This document shows positions 9,154 through 37,499 of a DNA stretch of 38,800 nt, piece after piece; the stretch's first letter is position 1; the number at the start of each line of letters is the position of its first letter. The notes under the pieces are model-generated. The model was not told the DNA's origin, did no database searches, and saw nothing but the letters and a program-made list of their open reading frames with translations. Origin of the DNA: a virus; UHGV virus genome UHGV-0203104. The stretch is one strand, 5' to 3'. The position numbers were made by a program, and so were the translations under genes.

Positions 9154-9726
9154 TCAGGGGGATTCACTGCTCTTATTTGCCGGAAATTTTCTATAAATGG
9201 TAGAAACGCCCACATCAAAAATCAGTGCAATACGCTGTCTTGATTCTCCGGCCTCTAGTAAACGTCCAATCTGTGCCCACTGTTCGGTGGTCAACTTAGG
9301 ACGGCGTCCACCTACTCTGCCTTTGTCGCGAGCTGCAGCAATCCCCGCCCTGGTACGTTCAACTATCAGTTCGCGTTCCATTTCAGCCAGGGCACCCATG
9401 ACATGAAAAAAGAAACGGCCCATTGGGGTACTGGTATCAATACTGTCAGTCAGGCTTCGGAAATTCACGCCACGCTGGCGCAACTCTTCTATCAGCGTAA
9501 CAAGATGCCGCATACTGCGTCCCAACCTGTCCAGCTTCCAGACAACCAGCGTGTCTCCTGCCGATAGTGTCCTGAGTAGTTTTTTCAGCCCCGGTCTGTC
9601 GGACTTAGTGCCACTGATTTTGTCCTCAAAAATCCGCTCACATCCCGCGCAGTTCAGTGCATTACGTTGCAAATCGGTGTTCTGGTCATTTGTTGACACG
9701 CGTACATAGCCAATAAGCATGATCAT
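9154..9726 (-). CDS. Serine DNA invertase (Hin/Gin/Pin/Cin family)
   Basis: N-terminal YVRVSTNDQ catalytic-serine motif, resolvase/invertase core and C-terminal HTH (GVSTIYRKF); adjacent to the invertible tail-fibre segment. Confidence 0.9.
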   Translation of the reverse strand: MIMLIGYVRVSTNDQNTDLQRNALNCAGCERIFEDKISGTKSDRPGLKKLLRTLSAGDTLVVWKLDRLGRSMRHLVTLIEELRQRGVNFRSLTDSIDTSTPMGRFFFHVMGALAEMERELIVERTRAGIAAARDKGRVGGRRPKLTTEQWAQIGRLLEAGESRQRIALIFDVGVSTIYRKFPANKSSESP

Positions 9727-9747: not shown

Positions 9748-10269
9748 ATGATGCCAGTTAGCTGTTACCTCTGCATTTTCTTAAACGTTGGTTTGGGAGA
9801 AGGCTCTGCATTACCTGTTGGTGTGCCTGTTCCATGGCCTTCAGCCACACCGCCAACAGGCTGGCTGAAATGCAACGGTGCGGCATTTTCTGCTGAAGAA
9901 TACCCGGAACTGGCAAAGGCTTATCCAACAAATAAATTACCTGATTTACGCGGTGAGTTTATTCGTGGCTGGGATGACGGGCGCGGTATTGATGCAGGAC
10001 GTGTTTTATTGAGTATTCAGGCCGGAATGCTGGAAAAGCACCGTCATCCTGTTGTCGCCAACGATGGGTATGACTCAAAAGAGGAATGGGAACTGGCGAC
10101 AATCTTCAGAAGAGCATATACGCAAGGCAGGGGGCTTGATGCTGCCGCTGCCGGAGGGAGTCTGATCCCATCACCGACACTTCATTCACGAGGGAGTATC
10201 GGTAATACTGGCGGGAATGAAACCCGTCCACGAAATATTGCATTTAACTATATCGTGAGGGCTGTATAA
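9748..10269 (+). CDS. Alternative tail-fibre C-terminal cassette (silent; fused to H after inversion)
   Basis: Track ORF 9748..10269; its first codons overlap the crossover site and encode GLGE, the same tetrapeptide encoded at the site inside H (YLGLGE); no independent promoter or RBS context. Confidence 0.6.
   Translation: MMPVSCYLCIFLNVGLGEGSALPVGVPVPWPSATPPTGWLKCNGAAFSAEEYPELAKAYPTNKLPDLRGEFIRGWDDGRGIDAGRVLLSIQAGMLEKHRHPVVANDGYDSKEEWELATIFRRAYTQGRGLDAAAAGGSLIPSPTLHSRGSIGNTGGNETRPRNIAFNYIVRAV
9776..9802. other. Invertase crossover site (gix/hix-like), left end of invertible segment
   Basis: TTCTTAAACGTTGGTTTGGGAGAAG; the core GGTTTGGGAGAAG recurs in inverted orientation at 11665-11677. 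Confidence 0.6.
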
Positions 10270-10871
10270 TGGATAACGCCGTATTAAATAGCGAGCTTAT
10301 TACCACGAAGGCGGGGAATATTACCGTCTATAACTATGATGGTGAGACGCGGGAATATATTTCTGCATCAACTGAATATCTTGCAGTGGGTGTCGGTATT
10401 CCAGCATATTCCTGTTTAGACGCTCCTGGTACATCTAAGGCTGGTTATACAATTTGCCGTTCTGTGGATTTAAAATCATGGGAATATGTGTCAGACCATC
10501 GCGGTGAAATCATCTATAACACCGAAACGGGAGATGCCAAAGAAATCACAGCACTAGGCGACTATCCCGAAAATACAACCACTATCGCCCCGTTAACGCC
10601 ATACGATAAATGGGATGGTGAAAAATGGGTGACAGATACTGAGGCACAACACGGTGCCGCAGTAGAAGCGGCAGAAGCACAGCGCCAGTCACTTATTGAT
10701 GCAGCAATGGCTTCCATCAGTCTGATTCAACTGAAATTGCAGGCCGGACGTAAACTGACGCAGGCAGAAACAACCAGACTTAACGCTGTGCTGGATTACA
10801 TTGACGCGGTGACGGCAACAGATACCAGCACCGCGCCGGATGTCATCTGGCCTGAACTGCCGGAGGCGTAG
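10269..10871 (+). CDS. Tail-fibre assembly chaperone, alternative copy
   Basis: 200 aa; C-terminus TSTAPDVIWPELP parallels the C-terminus of the convergent chaperone gene (TSSAPDIEWPTPP). Confidence 0.7.
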   Translation: MDNAVLNSELITTKAGNITVYNYDGETREYISASTEYLAVGVGIPAYSCLDAPGTSKAGYTICRSVDLKSWEYVSDHRGEIIYNTETGDAKEITALGDYPENTTTIAPLTPYDKWDGEKWVTDTEAQHGAAVEAAEAQRQSLIDAAMASISLIQLKLQAGRKLTQAETTRLNAVLDYIDAVTATDTSTAPDVIWPELPEA

Positions 10872-11295
10872 GCCATTCAATATCTGGCGCACTGGAGGTA
10901 TCAACCAGCTCCAGTGCATCCAGATAATCCAGCCACAAATTATATTGCGCCAGTTCCTCACCTTTCAGACGACCAATAGCGGCTTTACCGGGCCATTGCT
11001 TACTGTTCATGTATTCGTTGGCCTGGTTAATTAGTAGCTGTCTTTCTGATTCAGTAATTTCAATAAGCTCTTCATGCGTGGGTGGAGGAATATCTGCCCA
11101 CGCAGGCAGCCCATCATCTCCGGCAATACGGATTTTTCCTTGTGGCGGTTCAGCCATAAACTCACTGATAATATTTTGATTTACTTCCTTAGCGTCTGAT
11201 AAATCCCATCCCTCTGATTTATATTTATCAATCATATCCACAGGGAAAAAAGCATTATGCCTTGCGCTATAAACATATTCGTTCATATAAATCAC
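10843..11295 (-). CDS. Tail-fibre assembly chaperone (G-like), active orientation
   Basis: 150 aa immediately downstream of H on the same strand; Tfa-like. Confidence 0.7.
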   Translation of the reverse strand: MIYMNEYVYSARHNAFFPVDMIDKYKSEGWDLSDAKEVNQNIISEFMAEPPQGKIRIAGDDGLPAWADIPPPTHEELIEITESERQLLINQANEYMNSKQWPGKAAIGRLKGEELAQYNLWLDYLDALELVDTSSAPDIEWPTPPAVQAR

Positions 11296-11306
11296 CCTGA
11301 ATAAAA

Positions 11307-12728
11307 TTACTCACCAACAGCCCACCAACTGTAATTCATCGATACCGTGTCGCTGGTTGATGACGTTCTGTAAGCAGAATTAAAGCCGGTTAACGTTGGG
11401 CCTTCTGCAGTCATCACGAACCCTCGCCCAGCGCCTAAAGGCGCACCGCCATCACCAGAATGAGTAAGCATGGCGCAGTCCGCTTTTTTGGGGAAAGGGA
11501 TGCTGAATGTAATTCTCATTGTTTGCGTCGATAATGTCGGCGTAACCGCACCACGACCATATTGCAGGATTTTCCCGTTGGGTAATTTCATCCATCCATC
11601 ACCACTGGCAAAAGAGGCCATATCAGGTATCTGATTCGCCCCTGTCCCTACATTCCTTTTAGCTGCTTCTCCCAAACCAAGGTATGCGAGAAGACCAGCT
11701 ACATCCTTTCCACTCAAATTGGTAAGCGTATTGTCCAGCGGTTGTTTACCTGCCAGCGCATTAAGCATTGTCGTGGCAAAGTTCGGATCATTCCCCAGTG
11801 CCGCCGCCAGTTCGTTCAGTGTATCCAGTGCCGCAGGTGCAGAACCCACCATTGCTGCAATCGCTGATTTCACAAAAGCTGTAGTGGCAATCTGTGTATT
11901 GTTGACCGACTGTGCCGCAGTAGGTGCTGTTGGCGTTCCGGTGAGTGCCGGACTCGACAGTGGGGCTTTTAGTGCCAGCGCATTGTTAATAGTGGTACTG
12001 AATTTCGGGTCATTGTTAATGGCTGCGGCAATTTCTTTCAGTGTGTCCAGCGTGGCTGGCGCACCGTTAATCAGAGCAGTAATAGCGGCCTGAACAAACT
12101 CAGTGGTCGCAATCCGCGTGGTGTTATTTCCTGCTGCAGGCGTCGGCGCTTTTGGTTCTCCGGTAAATGTCGGATTATGTTTCTGCGCATACTGGGTATG
12201 AGGATCTTGTGCGGCAATGTGGTTTCTCATCTGGTCATCCACATACAGCTTTAATTCCAGGACTTCATCATCCACGTATTTACGGGTTGCCAGCACTACA
12301 GCAGGGTCGATTTTCAGGGTGATATTGTCCGTACTGCTGGTAATCAGCACCATGCGCACGGTCTGGGTGCGCCCGCTGCCTTCAGCCAGTTGCGGTTTAT
12401 AGCTTTCCGGGCAGTTTCCCACGGCAATCAATGCCCCTGACTCATCAAACAGGCCCACTTCACGTATCCACCAACCGCCCTCGTTTTCAGGGATCACCTG
12501 TTCAGCAATAATCTGGCTGCTGTTCTGCGGGTCGATATAGAGCATATTCAGCGCAGCCCGGCGTTTCTCATTTACCAGTGCACTCTGCTTTGCGTCCGGC
12601 GTCGGCAATGTTCCGCCACCATCGCCCACCGCCATATGGGTAATTTTTAAAGGCACACCGAGCGCGGCGGCGCTGGCAAGTTTCGCCGCGCCAATATCCG
12701 TCAGCAGGGTATAAAATTTTGTGCTCAT
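11307..12728 (-). CDS. H: Tail fibre protein (H homolog); C-terminal third lies inside the invertible segment
   Basis: 473 aa with repeated NDPxF / ALAxKxPL collar-like motifs; crossover site at 11664-11690 lies in-frame inside the gene. Confidence 0.85.
   Translation of the reverse strand: MSTKFYTLLTDIGAAKLASAAALGVPLKITHMAVGDGGGTLPTPDAKQSALVNEKRRAALNMLYIDPQNSSQIIAEQVIPENEGGWWIREVGLFDESGALIAVGNCPESYKPQLAEGSGRTQTVRMVLITSSTDNITLKIDPAVVLATRKYVDDEVLELKLYVDDQMRNHIAAQDPHTQYAQKHNPTFTGEPKAPTPAAGNNTTRIATTEFVQAAITALINGAPATLDTLKEIAAAINNDPKFSTTINNALALKAPLSSPALTGTPTAPTAAQSVNNTQIATTAFVKSAIAAMVGSAPAALDTLNELAAALGNDPNFATTMLNALAGKQPLDNTLTNLSGKDVAGLLAYLGLGEAAKRNVGTGANQIPDMASFASGDGWMKLPNGKILQYGRGAVTPTLSTQTMRITFSIPFPKKADCAMLTHSGDGGAPLGAGRGFVMTAEGPTLTGFNSAYRTSSTSDTVSMNYSWWAVGE
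11664..11690. other. Invertase crossover site (gix/hix-like), right end of invertible segment inside H
   Basis: CTTCTCCCAAACCAAGGTATGCGAGAA with imperfect dyad half-sites TTCTCCCAAACC / TTCTCGCATACC; inverted copy of the 9776-9802 core. Confidence 0.6.
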
Positions 12729-13330
12729 GGATTCACTCTCATTGTGTCAATAACATGGACCGCCCCGCCTTCATGCGCGGTGCCGCCGGAAATAATTGTT
12801 TCGTTGATATACGGATAGATCGTGATTTCTTCGCCAAGATAGCTGGCGGCTCCCACCCAATGCGGGCCGCTGGTCTGCAGATTGATGGACATGCCGATCA
12901 TGTGACGGCTACATGGTTTGGCATCGCTTATCAGTCGCTCAAGTTCCAGATAGGTATCTTCAGTGATGCCCTGGTCCTGCACGCCGATATCCAGGCGAAA
13001 CGTACCCGGTGTTTCTCCGGTCTGCCACCACTCAATAATGCGGATCAGGAAGCCGAACGGCTCCACCACCCGCCGCACGGCACTGGTGGTTCCTTTATGC
13101 TGATGAATATAAAAAGCATCCTTCACCACCTGTCGTTTGACGCTTTCCGTCCAGCCCTCGTCCCAGCGATCCACAGAGAACGCCCAGGCGAGATAAGGCA
13201 GGAAGCTGACCGGGCAGGTAGCCGGATTCCACAAGTCACGCAGCGGCACCTGCAGATCAGAAATCCCGCTGCACGTTTGCGCCAGTCGGCGCTCCAGTGA
13301 AGTTGACCCCGATGGCAGCAGACTATTCAT
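12725..13330 (-). CDS. I: Baseplate assembly protein I homolog
   Basis: 201 aa, coupled between J and H in P2 order. Confidence 0.8.
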   Translation of the reverse strand: MNSLLPSGSTSLERRLAQTCSGISDLQVPLRDLWNPATCPVSFLPYLAWAFSVDRWDEGWTESVKRQVVKDAFYIHQHKGTTSAVRRVVEPFGFLIRIIEWWQTGETPGTFRLDIGVQDQGITEDTYLELERLISDAKPCSRHMIGMSINLQTSGPHWVGAASYLGEEITIYPYINETIISGGTAHEGGAVHVIDTMRVNP

Positions 13331-15230: not shown

Positions 15231-16250
15231 ATGGATTTTAAAGAATGGTTAAGCTCAAATAAAAACAGTCTTCCCGATGCAACCAGAGAAAATTTTGAAA
15301 AGCTATACTGGGAGTTCATAGACTTCAAAGCAAATGAATACATGTCGGAATTTAAAGAAAAAAAAGCAGAATTACTGGCCCAAAATGAACAAGAACATCA
15401 AAATTTCATAAAAAGACATATTAATATTTGGAGAGATGGTTTTGGATTATTAGAGTTGTTGTTAGAGTTATGTATTAATCAAGGTTCTAAATATAGTACA
15501 AGCTTACAACAAGATAAAGACACCGACACAAACAACCATTTGCAATTACTAATTAGATTACACGCAAAGGCATGTGCAATTTCTAACGAGATTTTATGTC
15601 TATTAAAAAATGGATTTCCTGACGCAGCCCATGCAAGATGGAGAGCACTGCATGAAACAAATGTAACACTACATTTCATCGACAAGCATGGTCCTAAATG
15701 CTCAGAAATATTTTTAGCACATGAAATTTATGATAGCTATTATCTAATGATGTCACATAAAAAGTATGAAAGCAGGCTTCAAGAGAAAGGGCCCAGTAAT
15801 GAAGAGGCCAGAGAATTAACAGACTTGTTCGATAAAGCCATTAAAACATATGGCAGAAGTTTTGATTCGCAATATGGTTGGGCCACACCATTTTTAACTG
15901 ATAAGAAACACAAAGCTAGCTTTAAATCAATTGAAAAAGAAGTTAAATTAGATCACATGCGCCCATATTTTAAATGGGCATGCCAAAACATCCATGTAAA
16001 TATAAAAACAATCACTAATAGCTTGTCACTACCCCATCACCTGAAGAACGTCATCAACATAGGTCCAAGTAATTTCGGATTAGTTGACCCTGCACATGCT
16101 ACAGCCCTTAGTCTTACTCAATCAACGTGCTGTCTACTGAAAAATGACTGCAACGAAGAGAATTTAATTTTCATGAATTTAATTAAACAACTATCTATAG
16201 AAATAGGGGACACATTCCTATCTATATCTAACTCAATTGAAAACAAATAA
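15231..16250 (+). CDS. AT-rich cargo gene inserted between V and S; hypothetical protein with a possible HEPN-like R-x4-H motif
   Basis: 339-aa ORF on the opposite strand to the flanking tail genes; visibly AT-rich against GC-rich neighbours; AGGG RBS 6 nt before ATG; stop codon 3 nt from the S stop codon. Contains HARWRALHE (R136-x4-H141). Confidence 0.7.
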   Translation: MDFKEWLSSNKNSLPDATRENFEKLYWEFIDFKANEYMSEFKEKKAELLAQNEQEHQNFIKRHINIWRDGFGLLELLLELCINQGSKYSTSLQQDKDTDTNNHLQLLIRLHAKACAISNEILCLLKNGFPDAAHARWRALHETNVTLHFIDKHGPKCSEIFLAHEIYDSYYLMMSHKKYESRLQEKGPSNEEARELTDLFDKAIKTYGRSFDSQYGWATPFLTDKKHKASFKSIEKEVKLDHMRPYFKWACQNIHVNIKTITNSLSLPHHLKNVINIGPSNFGLVDPAHATALSLTQSTCCLLKNDCNEENLIFMNLIKQLSIEIGDTFLSISNSIENK

Positions 16251-22200: not shown

Positions 22201-23967
22201 ATGAACACCACACTGACACCCGCAGATCTCGATCCCCGTCGGCAGGCCATGCTGCTGTACTTTCAGGGATACCGCGTAGCCCGCATTGCTGAAATGCTGG
22301 GCGAGAAAGTTGCAACCGTTCACAGCTGGAAAAAACGCGACAAGTGGGGTGACTATGGGCCTCTGGATCAGATGCAGCTCACCACCGCCGCACGCTACTG
22401 CCAGCTCATCATGAAGGAGCACAAAGAAGGGAAAGATTTCAAAGAGATTGACCTGCTGGCGCGCCAGTCTGAGCGCCACGCGCGGATCGGCAAGTTTAAC
22501 AATGGCGGCAACGAAGCCGACTTAAACCCTAACGTCGCCAACCGCAATAAAGGCCCACGCCGTCAGCCTGAAAAGAATGTTTTCACCGATGACCAGATTG
22601 AGAAGCTGGAAAAAATTTTCCATTCCTCCATGTTCAACTACCAGCGCCACTGGTGGGAAGCCGGAAAAACCAACCGCATCCGCAACCTGCTGAAGTCACG
22701 CCAGATCGGCGCGACCTTCTATTTTGCCCGTGAAGCCCTGATTGACGCCCTGCTTACCGGACGTAACCAGATTTTCCTTTCTGCCAGTAAGGCACAGGCC
22801 CACGTCTTCAAACAGTACATCATCGACTTTGCCAAAGAAGTGGAGGTGGAGCTGAAAGGCGATCCGATAGTGCTTCCCAACGGGGCCACACTGTATTTCC
22901 TCGGCACCAATGCCCGCACTGCCCAGAGTTATCACGGTAACCTGTATCTGGATGAATATTTCTGGATACCGAAATTCCAGGAGCTGCGCAAAGTGGCTTC
23001 CGGTATGGCTATTCACAAAAAATGGCGACAGACCTATTTTTCCACGCCATCCAGCCTGACACACAGTGCTTATCCGTTCTGGTCCGGTGCGCTGTTCAAC
23101 CGTGGGCGCAACAAAGCCGATAAGGTGGACATCGACCTGTCCCACAGCAATCTGGCCCCCGGCCTGCTGTGCGCAGACGGGCAATACCGCCAGATAGTCA
23201 CCGTGGAAGATGCAGTGCGCGGCGGATGTAACCTTTTCGACCTCGATCAGTTGCGCATGGAGTACAGCCCGGACGAATACCAGAACCTGCTGATGTGCGA
23301 GTTTGTGGACGATCTCGCGTCCGTGTTCCCGCTCAGCGAGCTGCAGGCGTGCATGGTGGACAGTTGGGAAGTCTGGACCGACTTTCATGCACTGGCCCTG
23401 CGCCCGTTTGGCTGGCGCGAAGTGTGGATCGGTTATGACCCGGCAAAAGGTACGCAAAACGGCGACAGCGCCGGGTGCGTGGTGGTGGCACCGCCAGCCG
23501 TGCCGGGCGGTAAGTTCCGCATTCTTGAGCGTCACCAGTGGCGCGGGATGGACTTCCGCGCCCAGGCTGACGCCATCAAAAAACTGACTGAACAGTACAA
23601 CGTGACATACATCGGTATCGACTCAACCGGCGTCGGTCACGGGGTTTACGAGAACGTGAAAGCGTTTTTTCCTGCCGTCCGGGAGTTTGTCTACAACCCC
23701 AACGTTAAAAACGCCCTGGTACTCAAGGCCTACGACATTATTAGCCACCGCCGCCTGGAGTTTGACGCCGGGCACACCGACATAGCGCAGTCCTTTATGG
23801 CAATCCGTCGCGCCACCACTGCCAGCGGCAACCGCCCGACCTATGAAGCCAGCCGCAGCGAAGAAGCCAGCCACGCCGATCTGGCCTGGGCAACAATGCA
23901 CGCACTGTTTAACGAACCGCTGCAGGGCGAATCCGCCAATAACAGCAATATTGTGGAGATTTTTTGA
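22201..23967 (+). CDS. P: Terminase large (ATPase) subunit P homolog
   Basis: 588 aa (P2 P about 590 aa); hydrophobic-stretch D-E motif LYLDEY; divergent from O and followed by the portal gene. Confidence 0.85.
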   Translation: MNTTLTPADLDPRRQAMLLYFQGYRVARIAEMLGEKVATVHSWKKRDKWGDYGPLDQMQLTTAARYCQLIMKEHKEGKDFKEIDLLARQSERHARIGKFNNGGNEADLNPNVANRNKGPRRQPEKNVFTDDQIEKLEKIFHSSMFNYQRHWWEAGKTNRIRNLLKSRQIGATFYFAREALIDALLTGRNQIFLSASKAQAHVFKQYIIDFAKEVEVELKGDPIVLPNGATLYFLGTNARTAQSYHGNLYLDEYFWIPKFQELRKVASGMAIHKKWRQTYFSTPSSLTHSAYPFWSGALFNRGRNKADKVDIDLSHSNLAPGLLCADGQYRQIVTVEDAVRGGCNLFDLDQLRMEYSPDEYQNLLMCEFVDDLASVFPLSELQACMVDSWEVWTDFHALALRPFGWREVWIGYDPAKGTQNGDSAGCVVVAPPAVPGGKFRILERHQWRGMDFRAQADAIKKLTEQYNVTYIGIDSTGVGHGVYENVKAFFPAVREFVYNPNVKNALVLKAYDIISHRRLEFDAGHTDIAQSFMAIRRATTASGNRPTYEASRSEEASHADLAWATMHALFNEPLQGESANNSNIVEIF

Positions 23968-24674
23968 TGCCCCCAATCCCAACTAACCTCATGACTATCG
24001 CGGGACTTCCGGTGGATAGCTCTTTCTTTGCTTACCAGTATGAGTGGAACACTGGCCCAAAGAGTAGAAACCGTGTACTCACAAAAATGCGCCAGGCAGG
24101 CGCGGATTTCTTTTTTTCCTATGAAGCCCTGAACGATGCACTGCATACCGGGCGTAACCAGATTTTCCTCTGCTGCAGCACAGCATCTGCGCAGGCAATC
24201 AAAGCCTATGTATCAGCATTCTTAAGCCAGGCCGCAGCTTATACGCACACTGGAAAAATAAAATCAGGCAAAAGTCATCTGGAGCTTCCGAATGGTGCAG
24301 TAATTTATTTTACCGACCTCCGCAGTCTCACCTCCGCACTCAGTGGAAATGTTTACGTGTCAGAGTATGCCTGGAGTGAATCACCGAGAAATATGATTGC
24401 CATCGCTAAAGGGATTTCTATGCACGCACACCACCACGCCACCTACTACACCACTCCCAGCCCTAACCCAGAGGCACGGCAGGAATATAAAAAGCTATGC
24501 AGAAACAACAGCGTAACCAGCATGGTGTTCACCGCAGATGACGCAGCAGCATCTGGAGCAATGTTGTTTACTGATAACTGGCTGAACGATATGAAAAAAG
24601 AATTATCAGAAGAGGACTGGAAAATGCTGTTTATGTGCGAATGGCCTCTCGCTAGCAAGGAACTGGCAGAATGA
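23964..24674 (+). CDS. Terminase large-subunit ATPase-domain paralog with substituted Walker-B-like Asp; extra gene between P and Q
   Basis: 236 aa; start overlaps the P stop (ATGA) and stop overlaps the Q start. Aligns by eye to the central ATPase region of P (FNYQRHWW/FAYQYEW, DALLTGRNQIFLSASKAQA/DALHTGRNQIFLCCSTASA, NGATLYF/NGAVIYF, LLMCEF/LFMCEW), but GNLYLDEY of P is GNVYVSEY here. Visibly lower GC than P and Q. Confidence 0.65.
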   Translation: MMPPIPTNLMTIAGLPVDSSFFAYQYEWNTGPKSRNRVLTKMRQAGADFFFSYEALNDALHTGRNQIFLCCSTASAQAIKAYVSAFLSQAAAYTHTGKIKSGKSHLELPNGAVIYFTDLRSLTSALSGNVYVSEYAWSESPRNMIAIAKGISMHAHHHATYYTTPSPNPEARQEYKKLCRNNSVTSMVFTADDAAASGAMLFTDNWLNDMKKELSEEDWKMLFMCEWPLASKELAE

Positions 24675-25702
24675 GCAAACGTAAAAACACCAAGCAGGTA
24701 ACAGTTGGTCACGACACAAAACCAAGCAACGGCCCAACGGCTGAGGCTTTCAGCTTTGGTGATCCCATCCCCGTGCTGGACCGCCGCGAACTGCTGGACT
24801 ATGTGGAATGCGTACAGATGGATCGCTGGTATGAGCCGCCCGTCAGCTTTAATGGACTGGCGCGCACCTTCCGCGCCGCCGTGCATCACAGTTCCCCGAT
24901 TGCAGTAAAGTGCAACATTCTGACCAGTACCTATATCCCTCATCCGCTGCTCAGCCAGCAGGCTTTTTCGCGTTTTGTGCAGGACTATCTGGTATTTGGT
25001 AACGCCTACTTGGAGAAACGCACGAACCGCTTTGGTGAAGTTATCGCCCTTGAGCCAGCTTTGGCAAAATACACCCGACGCGGATTAGACCTGGATACCT
25101 ACTGGTTTGTGCAAGACGGTATGACAGCCCAGCCGTATCAGTTCACGAAAGGCAGCATTTTTCATCTGATGGAACCGGACATCAACCAGGAGATCTACGG
25201 CCTGCCAGGTTATCTCTCTGCCATCCCGTCAGCCCTGCTCAACGAGTCCGCCACACTGTTCCGCCGTAAGTATTACATCAACGGCAGCCATGCAGGTTTC
25301 ATCATGTACATGACCGATGCCGCACAGAACCAAGAAGATGTGAACAACCTCCGCAACGCAATGAAAAGCGCCAAAGGGCCAGGCAACTTCCGCAACCTGT
25401 TTATGTACTCTCCTAACGGCAAAAAGGACGGGCTTCAGATTATCCCGTTGTCAGAAGTCGCGGCGAAGGATGAGTTTCTGAATATCAAGAACGTGAGCCG
25501 GGACGACATGATGGCGGCACACCGTGTGCCGCCGCAAATGATGGGGATAATGCCTAATAATGTTGGGGGGTTTGGGGATGTGGAGAAGGCTAGTAAGGTT
25601 TTTGTGATAAATGAATTAATTCCTTTGCAAAAACGATTTATGGAAATAAACGCATGGCTCGGGGAGAAACTTATAGAATTTTCTCCATATGAGCTTAACT
25701 AA
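24671..25702 (+). CDS. Q: Portal protein Q homolog
   Basis: 343 aa (P2 Q about 344 aa); contains the conserved P2-family portal segment PLSEVAAKDEFLNIKNVSRDDMMAAHRVPPQMMGIMP. Confidence 0.9.
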   Translation: MSKRKNTKQVTVGHDTKPSNGPTAEAFSFGDPIPVLDRRELLDYVECVQMDRWYEPPVSFNGLARTFRAAVHHSSPIAVKCNILTSTYIPHPLLSQQAFSRFVQDYLVFGNAYLEKRTNRFGEVIALEPALAKYTRRGLDLDTYWFVQDGMTAQPYQFTKGSIFHLMEPDINQEIYGLPGYLSAIPSALLNESATLFRRKYYINGSHAGFIMYMTDAAQNQEDVNNLRNAMKSAKGPGNFRNLFMYSPNGKKDGLQIIPLSEVAAKDEFLNIKNVSRDDMMAAHRVPPQMMGIMPNNVGGFGDVEKASKVFVINELIPLQKRFMEINAWLGEKLIEFSPYELN

Positions 25703-25751: not shown

Positions 25752-28088
25752 TTACAAATATGTATTGCTATGTAGAGATGTGTTTATTCCATCTTCTATC
25801 TCAATTTTTGACGAAGCATACTCATCATTCGCACTATCATCAATATCAAACTCATCTTGTAGATGAAGTGACTCATTTAACGGTCTATAAAACTCACCCA
25901 TCATCATTTTGTAATGGGCAGTATGCTCACTACACTCAAATATCTTCTGAAAAACAATTAAATATTTTTGCACAGACTCCGTATCTAAATTCATATAAAG
26001 ATCATCACCTGCAAAATGAGAACCATCATTAATCCATGACACTAAAGATTTAAATATGATTTTTTCATCACCATAAAAATGACATTCAAGCTTCCTAATA
26101 TCCATCCCACCTAATATCTTAAAGTAATTCTCCAAAATCCTTCGCATTGTATTTTGTATAGTATTATTATTAATATCTGTTCTTCTCAATTCGCACCAGA
26201 GCAAATCATAAGACGTTTTTATTGGGTTTGATTCGCACTTTTCAAGATATGAGACCTTCCCTTTTTTCCTTACAATCCAAAAAGTCTCCTCTTTCATTGC
26301 TTGATTACCGGATCTTTTAGTATTAAAAGTCAACTCTTTATGAAAATAAATATTATGTGTAAGGAATATAATTTGCTTAATATTTCCTTCATCCTTACGA
26401 ACATCCTCCATTAAATCTTTAATCAACGAACTTACAATAAACAGAATATCACTATCTAAACTTGAAATTGGATCATCAAATACTACAACACGATCATCTA
26501 AAACACCTGATGCATTATCACTCCCTCTAACAAGGCTATAAAAATACAAAAAAGTGATAAATGTCTTTTCTCCCTCGCTAAGGGTTGTACGAGCATTATC
26601 TCCACTATCTCTCACTATCATATAATGCTTTTTATCTTCGGAGGGTTTTAAGTAAAAATTTTTGAAGCCATAAGAATCCAGAATCTTGTTAATTTTTGTA
26701 ATAGTTGGAAGAGTACTGGTTTTATTAGACTCAATTGCCTCAATAGCCGAAGCATTTAACATTAACTTCTTTTTGTCTTCCTCTAACCCAGATTTAAGCC
26801 CTTGTAACTTCCTATTAAATTTATCAGATTCGCTACGGTAAGAAGTTATTTCAGACTTTAACTCCACCTTTACGATATATGCCCATATCTGATTAGAAAG
26901 ATTACTAGCCTCTACCTTTCTATTACTGTGTATTTTGTTATTATTATCTATCAATAGATTTGAATCATTCAAAAAAGAAATAAAATCATCAACAACTTCA
27001 CTTAAGTCACTAAAATGAACTGATTCACTTAAAAAATTGCGTTTATTTTTTGCCAATTCAAAATTCTTGTTTAATTCAGATAATACTATCTTAGCCTTAT
27101 CCTCAAACACTTCATAGTTTATGAATGGAGATTTAATCGCCCTTATATCATCTATCGCCTGCAAGATATTATTAAGTTGATGTTCATATTGTAAAACCAA
27201 TGCATCGATTTCTCTTTTTTTTAACTCATATGTTTTATCAAAATATGATGATAGATTATCAAATATATTATCATTTACATCCTGCTGGCAGAATGGGCAC
27301 TTGGGATTAGATTTACTGAAATATGTTAAACCTTCCTTAACCCAATCACTGTTATTGAGCATTGTAATTAAGTCTGAAACACTAACGTCTTTTTTCCCTA
27401 GAATACGCTCACTCCAAATCTCCCTACTCAAAATATCATCTATCCCATTGAAGGATGGAATTGTAATTGATACATGTGATGTCAATTCAGTAGAAAAAAC
27501 AATTTTTGCTTTCTCAATTAGCTCTGCTATTGAGCAAACTTCTGATGTGTTATTTTCATACTCAGCCAACACTCTAGCTTTAAATTTTTCACTACTATTC
27601 CTTAATCCCTCAAAAGCCTTTGAGAACACATTATCATGTTTTACTTTTTGCTTCCAACATGAATCTTTAAAAGATTTTTCATGGTCTTCGATTTGTTTAA
27701 CAACGCCTAATATATTATCACCACCATCTATTAGCTTTTCCTTTGCTATAATAGATTCTATTAGCTTATTTTTTTCTTCTTCAAGAGATATTAATTTCTC
27801 TTCATCCTCCTTAAGATCGCTACCAAGGGTAAATACACCTTTAATTTTATCTTGACTAAAATTTCTTTCAACAAAATCTTTATTATATACGTAGCTTATT
27901 AAAGATATATTATTTTTCCATTTAATCGGACATGTTGGATATTGTTCAGGGTCATTAATAATTTTACTTATAGTTGTTTTACCTGCACCATTAGCTCCAT
28001 ATAAATAGTTAAATTTAGAAAGCCCATGTAAAAGCTGAGTAGGGCCATTATATGAGCCTACTTTGTCAATAACTACCTCTTCAATCAT
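25752..28088 (-). CDS. RloC/PrrC-like (AAA_13-type) ATPase with zinc hook and putative C-terminal anticodon-nuclease-like region
   Basis: 778 aa, strongly AT-rich. Walker A GANGAGKTT (res 31-39), CPFC zinc-hook-like motif (264-267), ABC-signature-like LSEGEK (503-508), Walker B VVVFDDP (534-540), LTHN (576-579), and C-terminal R-x3-E plus downstream His (RRILE 649-653, H670/H691). Sits between Q and the cos-like site. Confidence 0.6.
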   Translation of the reverse strand: MIEEVVIDKVGSYNGPTQLLHGLSKFNYLYGANGAGKTTISKIINDPEQYPTCPIKWKNNISLISYVYNKDFVERNFSQDKIKGVFTLGSDLKEDEEKLISLEEEKNKLIESIIAKEKLIDGGDNILGVVKQIEDHEKSFKDSCWKQKVKHDNVFSKAFEGLRNSSEKFKARVLAEYENNTSEVCSIAELIEKAKIVFSTELTSHVSITIPSFNGIDDILSREIWSERILGKKDVSVSDLITMLNNSDWVKEGLTYFSKSNPKCPFCQQDVNDNIFDNLSSYFDKTYELKKREIDALVLQYEHQLNNILQAIDDIRAIKSPFINYEVFEDKAKIVLSELNKNFELAKNKRNFLSESVHFSDLSEVVDDFISFLNDSNLLIDNNNKIHSNRKVEASNLSNQIWAYIVKVELKSEITSYRSESDKFNRKLQGLKSGLEEDKKKLMLNASAIEAIESNKTSTLPTITKINKILDSYGFKNFYLKPSEDKKHYMIVRDSGDNARTTLSEGEKTFITFLYFYSLVRGSDNASGVLDDRVVVFDDPISSLDSDILFIVSSLIKDLMEDVRKDEGNIKQIIFLTHNIYFHKELTFNTKRSGNQAMKEETFWIVRKKGKVSYLEKCESNPIKTSYDLLWCELRRTDINNNTIQNTMRRILENYFKILGGMDIRKLECHFYGDEKIIFKSLVSWINDGSHFAGDDLYMNLDTESVQKYLIVFQKIFECSEHTAHYKMMMGEFYRPLNESLHLQDEFDIDDSANDEYASSKIEIEDGINTSLHSNTYL

Positions 28089-36463: not shown

Positions 36464-37499
36464 TAACTATATCCAACAATACCCATGGATATCGTACTTA
36501 CTTATCATAATATATTTTATATATATATGCCTTGAATTATATCTATGCGTATCAAAAAAAGGCTTTAACATGGATGAAAGGCCATTAACAAGTCAATACT
36601 TATTTAAACAATCACTTAGGATTCCTGTATTTTCAGCGATATACTTTGGTATATTTTCCTGGCTTGGACATTCCCCTCAATTTGATAGTGAGGGCTTTAA
36701 TAATTTCATTGCAATTAGCAAGCTTCCTATCGCCTTACTTTCTTTGTCCATACCATTTGTTGCTGTCGTAGCAAACATACACCGCACAGTTCAAACAAAC
36801 CGACAAATTGAGGAAACCAAGCAAAAGAATCTATCTGATAGCTACTATAGCCATCTAAAGTTCGTTACTGATTATTTCACCAATTTACCTAACAAAACCA
36901 TTAAACGCGAACGTCATTATGGTACTAAAGAGATAAGTTATAAAATTAACTACCCAATACATCTATATAGATATATTTTCATAAATAGCTCACCAGAGAA
37001 GGGACGGCCTAAAAATACAGATAAAGAATACATACGTGAAGTGAATAATCACTGGGTTGATATACTAAAAAACCTGGAGAAGATACATTCATCTAATCGT
37101 GGCTCTCAGTGTGACGAAGTTTTAATCCGTCAAATGCAATCTCTTCATTCAATAGAAAAACACTTATCCGAACTTAATCGAATGCTTTGCCTAACTCCAA
37201 TGGAGTTAAATGAACATGGAACTTTATACTTTGATGGATATAAAATGATTACTAACTTCATGTCCAGCATTGAACTTGGCGATACAATTGAAACCTACTT
37301 CAAATTTACCATTGATATTCTTGATATTACCGATAATTTCCTTTCATTCAAGGATGATGGCTCGTCTGGGCAAATCATTATACTTGCAAGATTACTGAAA
37401 GATAATAATCCAGCTATCTTTGATGAAATTATAACAGACAAAGGGAAGGCTCAACCTTCGTTGACCTACAATGGCGACAAATTGGCGGCAGAGGATTAA
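36453..37499 (+). CDS. AT-rich cargo protein with hydrophobic N-terminal segments (hypothetical; possible exclusion/abortive-infection factor)
   Basis: 348-aa ORF (alternative start at 36570, MDERPL..., AGG-containing RBS); strongly AT-rich; apparent hydrophobic helices (IPVFSAIYFGIFSWLG, LPIALLSLSIPFVAVVANI) before a roughly 220-aa soluble domain. Lies between int and attR. Confidence 0.6.
   Translation: MFVNNYIQQYPWISYLLIIIYFIYICLELYLCVSKKGFNMDERPLTSQYLFKQSLRIPVFSAIYFGIFSWLGHSPQFDSEGFNNFIAISKLPIALLSLSIPFVAVVANIHRTVQTNRQIEETKQKNLSDSYYSHLKFVTDYFTNLPNKTIKRERHYGTKEISYKINYPIHLYRYIFINSSPEKGRPKNTDKEYIREVNNHWVDILKNLEKIHSSNRGSQCDEVLIRQMQSLHSIEKHLSELNRMLCLTPMELNEHGTLYFDGYKMITNFMSSIELGDTIETYFKFTIDILDITDNFLSFKDDGSSGQIIILARLLKDNNPAIFDEIITDKGKAQPSLTYNGDKLAAED

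Follow-up and report, generated by a model that had tools for sequence, protein, structure and literature searches.

Gene X and its position in the late operon

The stretch analysed here (UHGV virus genome UHGV-0203104; 38,800 nucleotides, referred to as the window) matches a 186/P2-type prophage of Escherichia coli MINF_1D (NZ_LR890198.1), with 0 mismatches across the 35,101 bases compared, and this report concerns an extra gene, designated X, that lies in the window between the genes for the terminase large subunit (P) and the portal protein (Q). X is almost certainly a genuine, selected gene that encodes a stand-alone copy of the ATPase domain of a P2-type large terminase. The gene order is N and O on the minus strand, followed on the plus strand by P (22201-23967), X (23967-24674) and Q (24671-25702). 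P, the upstream neighbour and parent-type gene of X, encodes a 588-aa protein with a Terminase_5 helix-turn-helix, an ATPase and a nuclease domain (Pfam Terminase_5, 3e-27; Terminase_6N, 1e-65; Terminase_6C, 2e-49) and is labelled “terminase ATPase subunit family protein” by the Prokaryotic Genome Annotation Pipeline (PGAP), while Q, the downstream neighbour, encodes a 343-aa portal protein (PGAP annotation; Pfam Phage_portal, 4e-16). In phage P2, Q directly follows P, as a first-pass annotation of the window (made by a model from the sequence) had correctly stated.

The same annotation had described X as an open reading frame of 236 aa (23964-24674), translationally coupled to both neighbours. 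The reading frame is real; its likelier start is the ATG at 23967 rather than the alternative TTG at 23964, which gives a product of 235 aa, since this ATG is the PGAP start in the identical MINF_1D record, Met1 is invariant in the family and a GGAG Shine-Dalgarno sequence (23955-23958, plus strand; read from the sequence) lies 8 nt 5' of it. This GGAG site also serves Q in prophages without X, the junction being identical up to the ATG in an alignment with an insert-less prophage (L003). With the ATG start, the P stop codon (TGA, 23965-23967) and the X start codon share one base in a TGATG (23965-23969, plus strand), and TGATG or TAATG is kept at the P/X junction of six loci from different genera; the four-base ATGA overlap reported at this end would exist only with the TTG alternative. 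At the 3' end, the earlier description stands, as the X stop codon (TGA, 24672-24674) and the Q ATG (24671-24673) overlap in an ATGA (24671-24674, plus strand) that is conserved in six of six loci compared, with an AGGA Shine-Dalgarno sequence for Q (24658-24661, plus strand; read from the sequence) inside the 3' end of X. A promoter scan ahead of X found no promoter-like site of its own. Judging from these junctions, X would be translated off the late P-Q message via its overlapping stop and start codons. A terminator-like GC-rich hairpin followed by a T-rich tract is present inside X (24088-24104, plus strand), over the Walker-A codons; it is probably a chance occurrence, because the nine such sites in the region, compared to 4.5 +/- 2.0 in shuffled sequences, do not amount to strong enrichment.

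Homology and predicted structure

The similarity of X to the ATPase region of P, which had been noticed by eye, is borne out by BLASTP (32% identity, E 3e-32, residues 142-368 of P) and by Pfam, where Terminase_6N (PF03237) scores 63 bits with 22 required (E 4e-17), from profile position 6 to 201 of 215; the match to phrog_3746 reaches 2.6e-86. The domain boundaries are clean. Terminase_6N is the sole Pfam domain of X, with no match to Terminase_5 or Terminase_6C, and X is thus devoid of the N-terminal and nuclease domains. Its C-terminus is the ATPase-nuclease hinge (MCEW), equivalent to residue 368 of P, in agreement with the initial observation that the nuclease half is missing. Relative to P, a loop of ~25-38 residues after the coupling (C) motif is deleted as well.

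The AlphaFold2 model of X, computed from a 29-sequence alignment, has a mean predicted local distance difference test score (pLDDT) of 81 and a predicted template modelling score (pTM) of 0.83, with the first 20 residues predicted to be disordered. Foldseek comparison of this model to the PDB retrieved the ATPase domains of the large terminase subunits (TerL) of P74-26, T4 (gp17), D6E, HK97, Sf6 and PhiV-1, the top matches having E-values down to 3e-9 and template modelling (TM) scores of 0.6-0.7; among the viral structures of BFVD, only terminases were matched. X has no NCBIfam family, and a PDB search by sequence was empty. In databases, X-type proteins are labelled “terminase large subunit domain-containing protein” or “terminase family protein”, and such labels can mislead terminase-based phage typing. 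As a functional TerL X does not qualify: it has no nuclease and no N-terminal domain, its Mg2+ ligands are non-canonical and it is not a core gene.

A rewired nucleotide-binding site

Four motifs of the terminase ATPase can be located in X (all on the plus strand). Tyr23-Gln24 (24033-24038), placed by alignments and with Gln24 invariant in the family, forms the “YQ” motif upstream of Walker A, which we take from the T4 gp17 literature to be the adenine-binding motif of large terminases. The Walker A or P-loop motif (K40-M-R-Q-A-G-A-D47; 24084-24107) carries Asp47 in place of the Thr of the terminase KSRQIGAT, and the Walker B region (G127-N-V-Y-V-S132-E133-Y134; 24345-24368) carries Ser132 in place of the Walker-B Asp, with the catalytic Glu133 retained. 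The C motif (T162-T-P-S165; 24450-24461) is kept in the alignment. At the two Walker sites, the 12 Peduoviridae TerLs compared read K-S-R-Q-[IV]-G-[AF]-T and [YF]-x-D-E without exception, and the 28 X-family members, likewise without exception, K-x-R-Q-x-G-A-D and Y-x-S-E. Within the X clade, the YQ motif, the P-loop Lys, Arg, Gln and Gly, the catalytic Glu and the C motif are invariant or nearly so (K40, R42, G45, A46, D47 and E133 without exception in the 28 members; T162, P164 and S165 invariant or nearly so), and Thr occupies the D47 position in 12 of 12 TerLs.

The first-pass annotation had pointed to the replacement of the Walker-B Asp by Ser, and this part is correct (codon 24360-24362 is TCA, encodes Ser132, aligns with the Asp of the LYLDEY of P and is fixed in the 28 members); the partner replacement of the Walker-A Thr by Asp had been overlooked. 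In P-loop NTPases generally, the last residue of Walker A and the Walker-B Asp adjoin at the Mg2+ site. The aligned sequences thereby suggest that in the X family the acidic residue of the Mg2+ site has moved from Walker B to Walker A (Thr to Asp, Asp to Ser) while the nucleotide pocket was kept, and the active site looks rewired rather than simply broken. The earlier description of X as probably catalytically impaired goes further than the sequence warrants, since the YQ motif, P-loop, catalytic Glu and C motif are retained. To our knowledge, no other P-loop ATPase carries a reciprocal Walker-A Thr-to-Asp and Walker-B Asp-to-Ser exchange; it is conserved over deep divergence, and it deserves biochemical attention whatever the role of X.

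The two positions change together across 185 aligned relatives: of the proteins with a Walker-A Asp, 69 have a residue other than Asp at Walker B and one has Asp, while of those without it, 105 have the Walker-B Asp and nine do not. The P-Q locus itself holds a graded series of very divergent short genes (L023, L027/L028, L034/L035, L032/L033) that runs from canonical to degenerate active sites. Three short relatives from this locus (P0067, P0069, P0075) have a fully canonical Thr/Ser-Asp-Glu set, P0061 (also between P and Q) combines a Walker-A Asp with a Walker-B Gly, and P0139 (P-Q locus) has lost the catalytic Glu. Further, in two relatives of unassigned locus (P0065, P0060) the Walker-A Asp is accompanied by Ala or Pro at Walker B, and in P0087 (early operon) and P0122 (early-operon-type by sequence) neither Walker position is acidic.

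These data bear on the possibility that the swap preserves Mg2+-ATP chemistry and that X is a working ATPase with a new job on DNA, RNA or protein, no mimicry being involved. The near-invariance of the catalytic and nucleotide-contacting residues is what such an enzyme would require, a reciprocal and covarying swap is expected if one metal-site carboxylate must stay, and the basal relatives found at this locus have canonical motifs throughout. Against this, the partner of Asp47 at Walker B can be Pro, Gly or Ala, and some relatives have neither acid or no catalytic Glu, so that hydrolysis is not essential across the wider group. Moreover, TerL ATPase domains have 97 positions with a conservation of 90% or more; in X, 34 of these are kept, 10 have switched to another residue that is itself conserved, and 53 vary, free of the constraint seen in TerL. 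An active enzyme of this kind is hence considered doubtful. The nucleotide pocket (P-loop, TGRNQ, NGA, Walker B region and C motif) accounts for nearly all of the 34 kept positions, and the picture that emerges from the alignments is that of a retained but rewired nucleotide site on a scaffold freed of motor-specific constraints.

Evolution and selection

When the ATPase region is used to build a neighbour-joining tree, X proteins are monophyletic and separate from the Peduoviridae TerLs with a bootstrap of 1.0 (the TerLs being from phages of Escherichia, Yersinia, Pantoea, Buttiauxella, Ralstonia, Pseudomonas, Vibrio, Mannheimia and Pseudoalteromonas). On average, X proteins are twice as distant from one another (0.93) as the TerLs are (0.44). 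Monophyly and distances together indicate that X is an old paralogue and no recent copy of the neighbouring P. A recent tandem duplication is ruled out, X being about equally distant from every Peduoviridae TerL and its family monophyletic.

X diverges far faster than its neighbours. Between the window and a Pantoea prophage, identity is 84% for P and 78% for Q but 42% for X; between the window and Yersinia phage MLG42, it is 94% for P and 76% for X, and across the loci compared X is 36-47% identical where P is 82-87% identical. The ratio of nonsynonymous to synonymous substitution rates (dN/dS) is 0.19-0.45 for X and 0.01-0.14 for P and Q (pairwise Nei-Gojobori estimates, which saturate for distant pairs). 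X is under purifying selection, with a much weaker or more heterogeneous constraint than P and Q.

These estimates dispose of the view of X as a non-functional remnant, be it a partial duplicate in decay or a piece of P with a frameshift, although a GC content at third codon positions (GC3) below that of its neighbours and its absence from most related prophages could be read in that way. The frame is intact in every locus examined, the dN/dS range is that of a constrained gene, ~30 positions are invariant across members down to ~35% identity, the start and stop overlaps are conserved, and plaque-forming phages carry X. Nor can X have been broken off P, as P is full length with its three domains and only 32% identical to an intact X; a frameshifted or broken piece of P, named in the first-pass annotation as what might undo its reading, is therefore ruled out. 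The selection and conservation data effectively refute a dead remnant, which we regard as scarcely credible.

The flanks carry traces of recombination. P of the insert-less prophage is 99.0% identical to P of the window, and in Q the differences are concentrated in the first ~22 residues and at the very end of the protein, the remainder being nearly identical (the N-terminal difference spans 24671-24740 of the window and 1768-1830 of L003). Within individual genome pairs, Q and X have diverged several-fold more than P at synonymous sites, and such unequal synonymous distances are a sign of mosaic recombination near the junction; the sequence comparison points to a probable breakpoint at the P stop codon.

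As had been noted at first sight, the GC content of X (0.482) is lower than that of P (0.562) and Q (0.508), and the same is true of GC3 (0.508, 0.691 and 0.608, respectively). The accompanying proposal of an acquired, diverged copy holds in part: X is old, diverged and not a recent tandem copy, but its low GC alone is no sign of acquisition, because GC3 of X is below that of P and Q in 10 of 10 loci checked from very different hosts, and weaker codon selection fits equally.

Distribution and genomic contexts

A search of 5.8 billion proteins returned 58 relatives of X, nearly all of 225-241 aa with a few shorter partials, at identities down to ~37%. Their hosts are Enterobacterales (Escherichia, Citrobacter, Salmonella, Klebsiella, Leclercia, Pantoea, Phytobacter, Yersinia and Buttiauxella). 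When 1.8 billion representatives were searched with a profile, many additional proteins of 220-290 aa came up, scattered among full-length terminases (570-620 aa); the X family itself ranges from 225 to 260 aa. X is found in 21 of the 1224 complete E. coli genomes that match the P/Q flanks, while five of 457 matching phage records, which represent three distinct phages, hold an X-type copy (E at most 1e-30). Since the plaque-forming phages vB_YpM_MLG42 and vB_YenM_201.16 carry it, X is compatible with a working phage. In Escherichia phage 500465-1 (NC_049342.1 / CP025900.1, 7743-8439), an X homologue of 68% identity is present in two pieces, annotated as two “terminase large subunit” features, which may reflect a frameshift or a pseudogene.

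Sixteen genomic contexts were sampled rather than surveyed (nine related proteins, one phage, E. coli alleles and the window's own record). In 13 of these, all P2-like elements, the gene is flanked by P and Q, with overlapping stop and start codons in 11; on the two contigs with P0139 (L032, L033), gaps of 12 and 5 bases replace the overlaps. The P-X-Q order is found, together with the codon overlaps, in Escherichia, Yersinia, Buttiauxella, Pantoea and several metagenomic lineages. The other three contexts hold a sister clade (P0096, P0111, P0087) in the early operon, on the early strand just downstream of replication gene A (L022, 5001-5750; L025, 5001-5681; L029, 5001-5696), and there P abuts Q, so that the two locations are mutually exclusive in this small sample. 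The sister clade resembles X in its Terminase_6N fold family, its length, its grouping in the tree and, mostly, a Walker-A Asp with a Walker-B Ser or Pro; it differs in lying on the early strand after gene A instead of between P and Q.

X is an accessory gene, carried by a minority of P2-like phages at this exact position. Its being a universal core packaging gene of the lineage, an outcome that the first-pass annotation had allowed for, is ruled out by the low frequency among E. coli genomes and by the near-identical P and Q of the insert-less prophage.

The position of X between the genes of the packaging motor invites the explanation that it is a modulator or pseudo-subunit, which binds the ATPase ring of P or the portal and tunes assembly, timing or termination. 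Wedged between P and Q and coupled to them, X would be made in similar amounts, and it has kept the ATPase fold that mediates contacts between TerL subunits. Nevertheless, X is dispensable for near-identical P and Q, given the 99% identity of P in the insert-less prophage and the absence of X from 98% of related E. coli prophages; it diverges many times faster than P and Q, unlike a stable partner; and the sister clade is expressed from the early operon. The N-terminal and C-terminal domains of P are also missing from X. By analogy with lambda gpA, these are the domains that would carry the small-subunit and portal contacts, and X would accordingly be without the means of docking to either. 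A role in tuning the motor is therefore judged to be rather unlikely.

Other features of the window

Downstream of Q, the old/tin-type hotspot that extends to the end of the early operon is occupied by a gene on the minus strand (25752-28088; GC 0.31) for a 778-aa AAA_13 (PF13166) ATPase, which matches PDC-S06, a candidate defence family of PADLOC, at 1.5e-266 and has weaker similarity to PrrC and LmuB. Other X-carrying prophages have TIR, AIPR, macro, OLD-like or SocA genes at this place. The notion that X is cargo of this defence hotspot is ruled out, as X lies inside the late P-Q operon and in neither the old/tin nor the Z/fun hotspot, the cargo differs per locus and X has no match among the PADLOC defence models.

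A DUF5677 gene (15231-16250, plus strand; GC 0.34), on the opposite strand between the baseplate V and tail-completion genes and with no PADLOC match, looks like an inserted moron. Further upstream, a recombinase-family (invertase-like) gene (9154-9720, minus strand) lies beside opposed tail-fibre and tail-fibre-assembly genes (9750-12730) that include a truncated tail-fibre pseudogene (12339-12728), which suggests an invertible host-range segment. At the prophage edge, just past the integrase, a hypothetical protein of 309 aa (36570-37499, plus strand; GC 0.35) has a weak PADLOC match to a 2TM effector (8.8e-5).

A possible mimic of the terminase ATPase domain

The explanation that we favour, tentatively and in the knowledge that it may well prove wrong, is that X is an ATP-binding mimic or decoy of the terminase that titrates factors targeting the ATPase face of TerL. 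According to this proposal, X would take no part in DNA packaging; it would bind ATP, display a terminase-like active-site face and, being made alongside the true terminase (or earlier, in the case of the sister clade), occupy molecules that target the TerL ATPase domain. The candidate targets are host terminase sensors (Avs1-3, Upx) and the TerL-binding inhibitors of rival elements; a decoy could equally protect against TerL-blocking proteins of satellites and prophages. The first-pass annotation had put forward a packaging modulator, a dominant-negative exclusion factor and a decoy for terminase-sensing receptors as hypotheses only, and hypotheses they still are. Large terminases are among the main protein patterns detected by bacterial immune receptors.

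The proposal is favoured by the fact that the conserved part of X is the ATP-bound active-site face, and by its production together with TerL or, in the sister clade, before it. Further, EcAvs2 and Upx recognise isolated terminase ATPase domains, EcAvs2 makes contact both with the ATP that the terminase holds and with the Mg2+ hydration shell of that ATP (PMC13601566), and T4 vs.8 provides a precedent. The evolution of X, far faster than that of P and Q, makes it unlikely that its partner, as the target of an arms race, is the slow P or Q. A more specific version, which we hold still more loosely, is that X and its early-operon sister clade would be the first phage-encoded pseudo-terminase, an ATP-locked TerL mimic that antagonises Avs1-3/Upx or soaks up TerL inhibitors, with the Walker carboxylate swap separating binding from activation or hydrolysis. 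If true, T4 vs.8 and similar “non-terminase activators” might be understood along these lines as well.

Several points weigh against a mimic. Isolated ATPase domains and vs.8 activate EcAvs2 (PMC13601566), and with sensors of this kind a mimic could be a liability and not an antagonist. In the loci examined, no Avs or Upx gene was seen adjoining X, and the hotspot cargo near X varies by locus (PDC-S06, TIR, AIPR, macro, OLD, SocA). Rapid divergence at a dN/dS below 1 is compatible, too, with relaxed constraint around a small functional core, and the fixed P-Q position could reflect a packaging role or an origin by local duplication. In addition, the strength of the Walker covariation (Fisher p = 3e-39) ignores shared ancestry and is overstated, since the phylogeny of the relatives is uncorrected, and the trees are neighbour-joining only, on ~200 columns.

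The question is tractable: P2-like phages are temperate and genetically manipulable, natural X-plus and X-minus prophages with 99%-identical terminases are available, and there are plaque-forming carriers.

Comparison with known systems

In the literature on a gene between P and Q, on terminase decoys and on nuclease-less terminase paralogues, a description of the X family was not found, and the passages on terminases in a survey of 5945 P2-like genomes make no mention of X. Among known proteins, gpP of P2/186-type phages shares with X a homologous ATPase domain, the TerL fold, the YQ motif, K-x-R-Q-x-G, the catalytic Glu and the C motif. Unlike gpP, X has no Terminase_5 and no nuclease domain, bears Asp in Walker A and Ser in Walker B and is without the loop after the C motif; it is also accessory and fast-evolving, with more than half of the TerL-conserved positions (53 of 97) unconstrained.

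Truncated, ATPase-only subunits are classic dominant negatives. X might on that principle be a poison subunit that leaves its own P alone but inserts itself into, or caps, the terminase of other P2-like phages or satellites, whether co-resident or superinfecting, and its fast evolution and patchy distribution would suit a weapon of this type. The blocking of a rival terminase is proven: Gpi of the PLE satellite binds and blocks TerL (PMC11417361), and TerI of Listeria prophages, which blocks TerL, is expressed in the lysogen from its own promoter and has dedicated anti-TerI immunity genes (bioRxiv 10.1101/2025.02.27.640495). X, by contrast, sits promoterless in the late operon and would not be made in the lysogen, where exclusion factors act. 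Selectivity is hard to picture as well, since phages with X proteins that differ by 24-60% have P proteins of 82-94% identity; an attack on rival terminases is consequently regarded as improbable. Like X, TerI and Gpi are accessory genes of mobile elements; both act on the packaging motor, and they are candidate opponents or analogues of X. Their papers do not describe them as terminase homologues, whereas X is a late-operon paralogue of a TerL domain with no partner genes.

The closest described analogue of X is T4 vs.8, a stand-alone TerL-ATPase-like protein that engages EcAvs2 and is toxic together with it; its authors suggest that vs.8-like proteins might be anti-defence factors (PMC13601566). 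Both proteins (vs.8, 219 aa; X, 235 aa) are short, nuclease-less copies of the ATPase domain of their own phage's TerL, restricted to a lineage and uncharacterised. They differ in that the Walker A and B motifs reported for vs.8 are canonical (PMC13601566), those of X being swapped, and in that the vs.8 gene is away from the terminase gene, while X is embedded in the P-Q operon. Membership of X in the T4 vs.8 family is ruled out by profile comparison (hhalign probability 0.1%, E 0.49), and vs.8 has no Terminase_6N match; with no detectable sequence relationship, the two have independent origins. The question of what extra terminase-like proteins do in phages has been raised for T4 vs.8, Ksap1 and Ksap2, and the X family provides a second, independent case: an uncharacterised, widespread group of terminase ATPase paralogues that stand alone and are set apart by their swapped Walker pair.

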